NCBI GenBank assembly: GCA_964016885.1
Contig: CAXHJY010001015.1
Span: 1-64,000 of the forward strand
Direction: 5' to 3'
Length of the DNA: 64,000 bases
From: Eledone cirrhosa
Lineage: Eukaryota
The notes under the pieces were generated by a model. It searched no databases, was not told the DNA's origin, and worked only from the letters and a program-made list of their open reading frames with translations. Of this stretch, positions 16,357-34,520 are shown piece by piece. Positions within the stretch are counted from its first letter, which is position 1. Each line of letters starts with the position of its first letter. Position numbers and translations under genes: made by a program.

Positions 16357-16555
16357 CAGATCGGATGTTTAAGTCATCTGGTTTGCAGAAACACAACAAT
16401 ATCTCGGTAACATATATACTTATATTAATGTGCATTTATGTCTCGAATTGTATTTTTGATCCAGTTTGAATTTTTTATTCATATATATATATATATATGT
16501 ATATATATGTATTAATTCAAATATTAACAAAATAGATATTCTTGTGATCAATTAA

Positions 16556-16621
16556 ATTTTATTATACATATTTCAGAGGTACTTCAATCAGGTTCAGCAG
16601 TAAGTCCTCATCAGATGAAAT
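16556..16621 (-). ncRNA. hammerhead ribozyme motif (family D, inverted copy, partly mutated)
   Basis: Minus strand ATTTCAT-CTGATGA-GGACTTACTGCTGAACCTGATTGAAGTACCTCT-GAAA-TATGTATA-ATAAAAT. Confidence 0.7.
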
Positions 16622-16704
16622 AAAATGATACATGGCATATCCTGACATGTTAGATGGTTAAGATTTAACCATCTAACATGTCAGGGTATGTCATGTATCA
16701 TTTT

Positions 16705-16770
16705 ATTTTATCTGATGAGGACGTACTGTTGAACCTGATTCAAGTACCTCTGAAATATGTATAATAAAAT
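16705..16770 (+). ncRNA. type I hammerhead ribozyme motif (family D)
   Basis: ATTTTAT/ATAAAAT 7-bp stem I; CTGATGA 16712-16718; long stem II GGACGTACT..TGAA/TTCAAGTACCTCT; GAAA 16752-16755; self-complementary ATATGTAT stem III; predicted AUA cut after 16763. Confidence 0.82.
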
Positions 16771-16933
16771 TTAATTGATCACAAGAATATCTATTTTGTT
16801 AATATTTGAATTAATATTAATAACTCTGGAAAATATCTCACTGTAGAGTGCTTCCAATCTACTGTAAAACTCATTCTTTGATGTACTCATTGAATCTTCT
16901 TGTTTAACTCTTTAATATATATATATACTTGCA

Positions 16934-18682: not shown

Positions 18683-18869
18683 ATGCATATATATGTACAT
18701 ATATACAAATATATATATATATGTGTGTGTATGTATATAATGCGTGAAAATGTATATGTATGTATATATATATATATATATATATATAAACATGCATATA
18801 TATGTACATATATACAAATATATATATATATGTGTGTGTGTATGTATATAATGCGTGAAAATGTATATG

Positions 18870-18906
<37 letters not shown>

Positions 18907-18908
<2 letters not shown>

Positions 18909-19236
18909 TGGCTGCCAACTCGTTTTCGAGTACGGCCACTACTTTATATCCATGTAGGAGAACCCCTACTGATGCGCTGAACGAGTGTGACTTTTTAGTC
19001 CAGCCAGCGACTTGAAAGCTCTGGTACAAACACTACACTTGTGACAATTATTGACACATAGTGCTGGGCCCATGGTACCATGTGACGACAAATGCAGAGA
19101 GATCTCCAGATATAAAGCAATGCCTGTGCCGTGAAGCTTTTATAGTGAGCAAAGGCACTGCACAAAGCCAGTCCCACTCTCTTAACCAAGATGATATTTA
19201 CCAAAAAGAAGAACAAGTCAACATCATTGGATGTTT
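18907..19236 (+). mobile_element. ~330-bp insertion in a (TA)n tract, with a degenerate HHR-like motif at 18966-19025
   Basis: Absent from the sister tandem units; CTA-CTGATG-CGCTG...CAGCG-ACTT-GAAA-GCT-C-TGG. Confidence 0.55.
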
Positions 19237-19290
19237 ATATATATATATATATATATATAAACATGCATATATATGTACATATATACAAAT

Positions 19291-19338
19291 TAGCCGTCGA
19301 AACGGCTTGAGCTCAGCCGTCGGGGTCTTACTGGTTCC
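19291..19338 (+). mobile_element. 48-bp family B insertion (HHR 3' half) with 11-bp TSD
   Basis: TATATACAAAT at 19280-19290 and 19339-19349; insert TAGCCGTC-GAAA-CGGCT tgagctc AGCCG-TC-GGGGTC.. Confidence 0.85.
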
Positions 19339-19499
19339 TATATACAAATATATATATATATATGTGTGTGTGTATGCGTTTGTGTATGTTTGTGTGTCTG
19401 TTACTATGTTTCCAAATGTGACCTTTCCACCACATGTCAATTGTTTACTTCTTTTCTTTCTTTGTTTGATTAATTGATTAGGCTGAAGCCACGAGAGCT

Positions 19500-34035: not shown

Positions 34036-34440
34036 TAATAATAATAATAATAATGTTGAATTAAAAAGATTGTAGCAGTTAAGGAATGTGTCTCCCATTC
34101 CATATGTAATTGGTACAGCTGGGAACCCACTGATCCGTTTCTGTAACGACATTGACAAATTACCTATAAAGATAGGCAGAGGCGCGTTCCAGAAAACGGA
34201 GGTGTCAACCACACTAAACATTACTAGGGCTTTCTCACAGCATTTGTACTCCTTTAATATTCTTTGTTAATTCTGACGTTATTCTCTATATGTTTTCTAT
34301 TGAACATCTCTGTATGAAAAAAATTGCACATTTCAGCACGTTAAACAAACTGCTTTGGCAACATTCAATAATTCTATACATGGGGTCAATCTTCAGTCAG
34401 TTAAGGTTTTGTTTATAGTATATATATACATATATATAAC

Positions 34441-34516
34441 GAAGGAAATGTGGTAAGGAACCATATGGACCATAACGCACCAAAGTACTCAATACTTAGG
34501 GTAGTAGAGTGGGTAA
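34441..34516 (-). mobile_element. family B 3' tail only
   Basis: Reverse complement of 283-357, flanked by (TA)n. Confidence 0.85.
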
Positions 34517-34520
34517 AAAC

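Follow-up and report, generated by a model that had tools for sequence, protein, structure and literature searches.

A half-hammerhead insert in Eledone cirrhosa as a likely run-off product of a Hydra-clade Penelope-like retrotransposon

The insert and its target site

In the window, that is, the whole 64,000-nucleotide stretch of Eledone cirrhosa DNA analysed here, two identical copies of TATATACAAAT enclose 48 bp with a C at position 19321 (Table 1). An earlier note on this DNA had described the segment as a 48-bp half-ribozyme insertion with an 11-bp target-site duplication (TSD) and with the empty site preserved next to it. On re-reading, its coordinates and letters proved exact, and a single TATATACAAAT indeed stands in each of two sister tandem units, with the same 5' and 3' context as in the filled unit. 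TATATACAAAT occurs nine times in the window (six plus, three minus), the long flank being common to four only. The unit with the insert is itself genuine, the third of the tandem series, and its TA run is also split by an unrelated 332-bp element, suggesting that both insertions took place later than the tandem duplication.

A 31-mer from the insert has 21,806 exact matches in its own 3.0-Gb genome, against none for the reversed control, and the 18-mer at the 3' end of the insert has 44,784. The stretch derived from the element measures 54 bp (19288-19341, 100% identical to the family copy L031) and not 48 bp, because the three nucleotides at each junction, AAT and TAT, belong to both target and element; the left target copy ends after AAT, which corresponds to element positions -51 to -49. 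The 14-mer GCCGTCGAAACGGC, which forms a hairpin in the predicted fold of the isolated 48-mer, gave three matches with at most three mismatches compared to 0.11 expected, a number reached in none of 100 shuffles, and the fold of the isolated 48-mer is itself not unusual (z = -0.15). As a single copy, the 48-bp insert is unremarkable, one arm in a Penelope-like element (PLE) family with more than 44,000 ends; what makes it of interest is the family.

Table 1. Coordinates of the insert, its target site and other features in the window; element positions are counted from the short priming site S
Feature	Position	Strand	Remark
Second, more diverged family copy	164..359		Head-to-head pair: short arm minus, long arm plus from initiator A (221)
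Empty site, tandem unit 1	18700..18710	+	
Empty site, tandem unit 2	18809..18819	+	
Unrelated young 332-bp element with fixed ends, in TA run of tandem unit 3	18901..19232	-	Eight loci match full length, 91.6-97.9%
Left target-duplication copy, 11 bp	19280..19290	+	19288-19290 (AAT) also matches element: 5' junction microhomology
Hydra-clade PLE arm, 48 bp, type I hammerhead 3' half (assigned on motifs)	19291..19338	+	Element -48 to -1 from short priming site S
Helix II 3' strand (TAGCCG) and C11.1	19291..19298	+	
G12 A13 A14, helix III (A15.1-U16.1 plus 5 bp), near-palindromic loop	19299..19320	+	
Predicted scissile bond GUC/G	19321..19322	+	In other copies, 5'-end hotspot and A/U-rich insert site
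Helix I 3' strand GGGGT	19322..19326	+	Partner ACCCC absent here, present in full copies
Right target copy	19339..19352	+	19339-19349 duplicated (11 bp); first TAT matches element at S
Third family copy, in (TA)n; tail-only arm with its end at long priming site L	34437..34518	-	

Several further features of the window were recorded. Loci of the 332-bp element sit in TA runs. A small inverted repeat forms the 5' end of the element, and a C2H2-like CxxC..H...H peptide, reminiscent of a LINE ORF at its 3' end, closes one of the minus frames; the element is possibly a non-autonomous LINE derivative. At 16520-16800, a head-to-head palindrome of another family has the same architecture, with one hammerhead core per arm (16614 minus, 16712 plus). 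Further hammerhead-like cores lie at 6417 (+), 7906 (-), 20253 (+) and 36675 (+), those at 7906 and 20253 being alike and resembling minimal PLE hammerheads. When the whole window was searched against Rfam, the best 150 of 664 hits were all miRNA models driven by microsatellites.

The source element and its hammerhead

As assigned on motifs, the insert is a fragment of an abundant Hydra-clade Penelope-like retrotransposon. It had been attributed to a ribozyme family that moves by itself, a view that we abandon, as the ribozyme is the end of a protein-coding element whose RT/GIY-YIG ORF is collinear with the flanks. The ORF of copy L031 (~710 aa) contains QFD and YRDD reverse transcriptase (RT) motifs as well as, at its C terminus, a GIY-YIG, of which the IY..AYIG block is kept across 11 homologues; at E<=1e-20, 1,747 homologues of ~700 aa were found. 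Searches with this ORF gave no Pfam family at E<=0.1 and no match to PDB sequences, and its assignment to EN+ PLEs thus rests on motifs. Here DKG is changed to DKT (SDKTGNLY), the linker carries CxCX5C (CNCPDRSIC), CxxC (CNLC) and CxH (CKH) stand around the conserved E and N, and CCHH is absent, with one Cys only inside the GIY-YIG core; at the RWK position L031 has RWR, and its homologues have RWK, RWR or RWT. In the accessible text of PMC8557442, DKT, CxCX5C, CxxC and CxH without CCHH form the diagnostic set of Hydra-clade PLEs. Likeness to the published Hydra proteins was judged by eye, from motif blocks shared with the supplement text of the same paper.

The family also shows the traits of EN+ PLEs at the DNA level, namely pLTRs made from partial tandems, an inverted 5'-truncated copy and a one-sided tail, and TA runs lie on both sides in nearly all of 110 inverted events. 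The element is ~3.5 kb long with a 1.3-kb 3' UTR and has a permuted order: ribozyme, site S, 80-nt tail, site L, 5' UTR and ORF. Its copies terminate on target TA either at S, where the insert ends, or at L, ~80 nt beyond. In 25 of the 30 ORF-start loci (scored by eye; two groups are single arrays), L continues into the 5' UTR and ATG, so that the sequence of the insert is also the 5' end of the element mRNA. Other PLE ORFs adjoin family copies (L050:2081-3859 (-), L048:1112-2707 (+) and L041:512-1234 (+)); one of them is a CCHH-type GIY-YIG with an RVT_1 match, and the others are Hydra-type families.

The helices that the earlier note had read from the insert (helix II 3' strand, GAAA, 6-bp helix III, GUC and GGGG) agree with 36 distinct full copies, from which the missing 5' half was recovered with its predicted CCCC and CGGCTA strands. 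The core was predicted less well: CTGANGA is found in none of the 36 copies, position 8 being A in all of them, while position 3 is U in 27 and C, giving a C3.A8 mismatch, in 7. A full copy consists of helix I (ACCCC/GGGGT), a (U/C)UGA(U/G)AA core, G10.1-C11.1, an internal loop, helix II (CGGCTA/TAGCCG) with a loop II of 37-40 nt, GAAA, a helix III of 6 bp and its palindromic loop, and the GUC site. The helix order is type I, with G10.1-C11.1, A15.1-U16.1 and NUH, and 91.6% of 308 cells are paired in 14 chosen copies. Covariation amounts to three double changes, all in helix II and from two distant copies only. Under a constraint that omitted the outer helix I extension, the hammerhead fold of main-family copies reached ~-20 kcal/mol, weaker than the MFE of ~-29 to -30, and an Rfam search with a full copy (L134:1600-1950) gave no hammerhead family at E<=10. 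U3-A8 is a known variant of PLE hammerheads, according to the accessible part of PMC4209133. Judged by its sequence, the full motif is a candidate type I hammerhead, with a U3-A8 core in 27 of the 36 copies, for which self-cleavage is predicted. A distant subfamily (L007:1788-1907 (-), L084:2073-2193 (-)) has the same ribozyme plan, with A8 and TTAGT kept and a longer helix II with compensatory changes.

Priming sites, 5' ends and the putative RNA start

One S arm and one L arm stand head to head in 106 of the 110 inverted events, and a second tally found S plus L pairs in 69 of 71. Among 50 inverted events with an interrupted target, the TSD is 14 bp in 14, 13 bp in 2, 12 bp in 2 and 30 bp in 1, with no call in the remaining 31; five further events have TSDs of 13, 14, 14, 14 and 14 bp. 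In one-armed events the TSD is mostly unreadable (no call in 15 of 18). Arm pairing and TSD lengths agree with the staggered-cut, target-primed insertion that the earlier note had proposed from this single locus. The 11 bp of the window does not represent the stagger of the family, for which the mode is 14 bp. We infer that 19339-19352 is the 14-bp stretch expected from this usual stagger, and it has TATA at its start and at its end. For Poseidon PAc in vitro, the accessible text of PMC11167929 describes that both strands are cut and extended and that reverse transcription starts at two internal sites bounding the tail.

Self-priming by fold-back, with an antisense template, has been hypothesised for rotifer PLEs; it could also give rise to the inverted arms, and the insert would then be a broken remnant. 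Palindromes at inverted junctions are read in this way in the accessible part of PMC3846280, and many pivots in the present family are short palindromes. However, fold-back leaves unaccounted for the S and L ends of the 106 paired events, the 14-bp duplication with TA at both ends and the untemplated bases between the arms, and we consider it highly unlikely.

The 5' ends of the arms were then tallied by hand, as were all tallies of listed rows, on the first 100 matches in genome order: 87 of these arms extend no further than -62, the interval from -63 to -86 contains no end, and 13 arms go beyond it. In this first end count, part of the -62 peak is artefactual, owing to the alignment of palindromic pivots, and in a stricter count of 141 arms most 5' ends are ragged, spread over -42 to -62. 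With no listed arm ending between -63 and -86, the 5' ends are non-random, as had been anticipated, but they pile up at the 3' edge of the 37-40-nt loop II rather than at the stem II apex, where the earlier note had placed the truncation. The 5' edge coincides with TYAGT, in which A is position -58 and which we take to be an initiator-like word. In the main subfamilies, the TATA-like TATTTAAA lies 29 nt above A(-58); it is weaker in one subfamily and absent in a distant one, and two distant-subfamily copies keep TTAGT though the rest of the loop differs.

A purine stands directly before A(-58), where the element has a pyrimidine, in 4,039 matches (85 G and 15 A among the 100 listed), whereas the control two bases upstream gave 1,795 matches (6 G, 59 A and 35 C among the 100 listed), an excess of G before A(-58) with Fisher p = 2e-23. 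The number of arms reaching -60 is 1,795. Among 43 G arms in 40 loci, the G is untemplated in 21, 6 belong to pairs with G on both arms, and in 16 the G could derive from the partner arm. One one-armed event (L305) shows a 15-bp duplication followed by G and then by A(-58). For L1, an untemplated 5' G has been taken as a mark of the cap (PMC9341517, accessible text). An extra G at the edge is what one would expect from a capped start of the RNA, and not from stalling at the stem II apex. As read from these DNA scars, the element RNA probably starts at A(-58) inside loop II of its own hammerhead, and we infer that most insertions are run-off products of such an RNA.

If RT copied a longer template and stalled at structured RNA, either helix II or the small GAAA hairpin, the 5' ends might also cluster. 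In favour of this, the top of the helix II 3' strand is where the arm in the window begins (-48 to -51), ends from -42 to -57 are numerous, and the 48-mer fold contains the GCCGTCGAAACGGC hairpin. However, RT would reach helix II at its base (~-42), and most arms nevertheless continue past the full strand to stop within the unpaired loop. The one-sided edge, with its empty interval from -63 to -86 among the listed arms, likewise argues against a stall, and an extra G at one position only, or on both arms of pairs, is left unaccounted for. We regard stalling as unlikely.

The RNA 5' end could instead be made by splicing or trans-splicing, with TTTTCATTYAG just before -56, which we take to resemble a pyrimidine tract plus YAG, as a 3' splice acceptor. 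In D. virilis Penelope, the end of an intron maps next to helix I (PMC4209133, accessible part). Against this, 43 junctions show neither a constant leader nor an upstream exon ahead of AGTCC, the distant subfamily loses the pyrimidine tract and keeps TTAGT, and many arms extend to -59 or -60; the chance that splicing defines the 5' end appears very slight indeed. The preferred reading remains a start of transcription at A(-58).

Two side observations concern the same region. In L073, L105, L111, L345, L358 and L361, long T runs stand directly 5' of the initiator A, and we interpret them as A tails that the cDNA end received once run-off had occurred. Units of 257 and 273 bp, each made of the element 5' end and the first codons, form tandem arrays at L122-L123 (C1:27009719-27010006) and L144-L149 (C3:214146558-214147955). 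Each unit of L122-L123 restarts at the initiator, and both loci look like retrozyme-style arrays born from a PLE by template jumps.

Cut-site scars, proposed mechanism and known systems

The predicted cut site GUC/G corresponds to element position -17. Breaks at the 5' end that are preceded by A number 195 at -17, compared to 46 at -16 and 44 at -20, a thin control of two neighbours whose counts are inflated by subfamily-specific microhomologies. A hand count gave ~21 arms at -17 and 0-4 at each of -15 to -25, from 100 rows, most of which had been set aside because they showed helix III switches or were longer arms with indels. Furthermore, 4 of the 30 ORF-start loci begin at ~-17.

Length variants between -27 and -15 were also inspected (100 of 101). 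In 18 rows (17 events) they are non-duplicated inserts of 5-30 nt exactly at GUC/G; the others are one 2-nt insert at GUC/G, one non-duplicated insert in loop III, and duplications or G-run changes. With the 42-nt insert of L213 added, the GUC/G set holds 18 events. A complete ribozyme 5' half is present in 17 of these 18 tailed events but in only 3 of 40 control variants, which are part of roughly 80 other rows (2 of 28 duplications and 1 of 12 G-run changes; p = 2e-9 against the 28 duplications), and the C before the cut is kept in 18 of 18. The inserts contain 189 A, 68 T, 26 G and 9 C (65% A) and start with T in 9 of 18, resembling what we take to be U-then-mixed-A RNA tails. The exception, L268, has one insert in identical form on each arm, which looks like inheritance from a parent copy. 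Only three loci had pure poly(A) following helix III, two of them at the cut site and one not (L212). Together, these scars in genomic DNA suggest that full-length ribozymes are likely cut in vivo at GUC/G. G-run expansions were also considered as cleavage marks and rejected, with a full ribozyme in 1 of 12. Separately, a recurrent 21-bp duplication from GAAA to GUC (for example L348, L351 and L358) makes up about a fifth of the listed variants and is likely due to slippage between two GCCGTCG copies.

Alternatively, the GUC/G inserts might be DNA-level products, arising when RT or repair adds untemplated bases during a pause at a G-run, or the family might be a non-coding retrozyme. Untemplated A/T runs are found at -58 junctions too, and G-run length variants are common at GUC/G, as a DNA-level origin would have it. 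The need for a full 5' half, set against both control classes, and the invariant C before the cut argue against such an origin, and the GUC/G inserts are A-rich on the sense strand whereas the additions at -58 are T-rich on it. Flanks collinear with the RT/EN ORF speak against a retrozyme, and we consider this pair of explanations quite unlikely. A non-LTR retrozyme, consisting of non-coding tandem monomers with a complete hammerhead in each, was rejected for this half-motif from an ORF-bearing family. We thus retain cleavage in vivo at GUC/G as the likely origin of the inserts.

A C3.A8 mismatched core occurs in 4 of 17 tailed full copies, and two subfamilies show much the same -17 rate per copy (~0.46% and ~0.38%, hand estimate), indicating that the U3-A8 pair does not visibly gate cutting. 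A core-dependent rate found no support either: by hand tally, -17 ends are no less frequent in the subfamily where C3.A8 cores abound. Trans cleavage, or cleavage within dimers, might account for the tailed C3.A8 copies and for the similar rates.

Overall, we think it likely that the insert is a run-off cDNA from the capped 5' end of a Hydra-clade PLE RNA, with the start probably in loop II. According to the proposed mechanism, the GIY-YIG nuclease would nick TA-rich DNA on both strands ~14 nt apart, and the two nicked 3' ends would prime at S and L. With both sites near the RNA 5' end, RT would run off after ~58 or ~138 nt, often adding a base opposite the cap, and the two cDNAs would usually be joined head to head. 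In the window, only the S arm would have survived, and pairing of the other 14-nt overhang with the cDNA likely took place at AAT; such annealing would trim 3 nt of target and ~7 nt of cDNA and thereby produce the 11-bp duplication. As an alternative for this locus, the nick spacing may have been shorter and RT may have stopped prematurely. Transcripts starting in loop II would hold half a ribozyme and would therefore not be cut in cis, while read-through transcripts would hold the whole ribozyme and likely be cut at GUC/G in vivo. The 5' cleavage product would likely be tailed, and RT would jump from the 3' product onto the tail.

We hold it moderately probable that a Pol II start hidden in loop II keeps the mRNA safe with half a ribozyme, that read-through RNA is cut, and that the genome is a fossil record of each RNA state. 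If true, this record would comprise tens of thousands of cap-marked run-off cDNAs, copies initiated at the cut site, and uridylated or adenylated cleavage products re-joined by template jumping. It would also provide in vivo evidence for PLE hammerhead cleavage and account for pLTR inversions and tails by priming at two sites and on two strands. The family offers position-exact, internally controlled cleavage scars, a testable start inside the ribozyme and a measured 14-bp stagger.

Inverted arms, tails, the (TA)n bias, U3-A8 and pLTR promoters are already published, as the accessible parts of PMC8557442, PMC4209133, PMC2377424 and PMC3846280 document. The literature searched, which was open-access and lacked most subscription papers, yielded no loop II start site, cap-marked run-off arms or tailed cut-site scars, and the papers found do not show in vivo cutting of PLE hammerheads.

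As far as the accessible text of Craig et al. 2021 (PMC8557442) goes, Hydra-clade PLEs share with the present family the C-terminal GIY-YIG, DKT, CxCX5C, CxxC, CxH and lack of CCHH, as well as (TA)n targets, a type I hammerhead near the 3' end, an inverted 5'-truncated arm and a one-sided tail. They differ in having RWK where the L031 ORF has RWR and in size (generally <3 kb, compared to ~3.5 kb with a 1.3-kb 3' UTR); for PLEs, tails of 30-40 nt are described (~80 nt here). The four Hydra hammerhead rows in File S2 have CUGANGA cores and loops II of 4-9 nt, in contrast to U3-A8 and 37-40 nt.

The Schistosoma Cercyon hammerheads (Cervera and de la Pena 2014, PMC4209133, accessible part) have in common with those described here the U3-A8 covariation, G10.1-C11.1, a short helix I, motif pairs on opposite strands and a palindromic loop III. 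They are minimal motifs without a stable helix III, whereas a 6-bp helix III is present here; the same text states that in vivo evidence is absent. As in the present family, the internal promoter of Penelope lies in a pLTR that arises from tandem copies (Schostak et al. 2008, PMC2377424), and rotifer pLTRs, likewise made by tandem copies, contain TATA/Inr-like motifs (PMC3846280). Unlike here, the accessible parts of these two papers describe neither a start inside ribozyme loop II nor a link to run-off insertions. Metazoan non-LTR retrozymes (bioRxiv 10.64898/2026.07.22.740005, accessible part) also have type I hammerheads and are related to PLEs, and short tandem 5'-end arrays like theirs occur here as well (L122-123, L144-149). 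The present family differs from them in its RT/EN ORF and in an insert that is a single half-motif.

In the accessible text of Frangieh et al. 2024 (PMC11167929), Poseidon PAc from Anolis resembles the family in its two internal RT starts bounding the tail downstream of the hammerhead, in the cutting and extension of both strands and in its AT-rich target. It belongs to another clade, and its hammerhead overlaps the ORF start. The priming site of PAc is not homologous to the cut DNA, whereas S and L share TA(T) with the target; its authors report no RNA reads ending at the hammerhead site, which genomic scars mark here. In its workings the family resembles PAc, and on its motifs it is filed as a Hydra-clade PLE.
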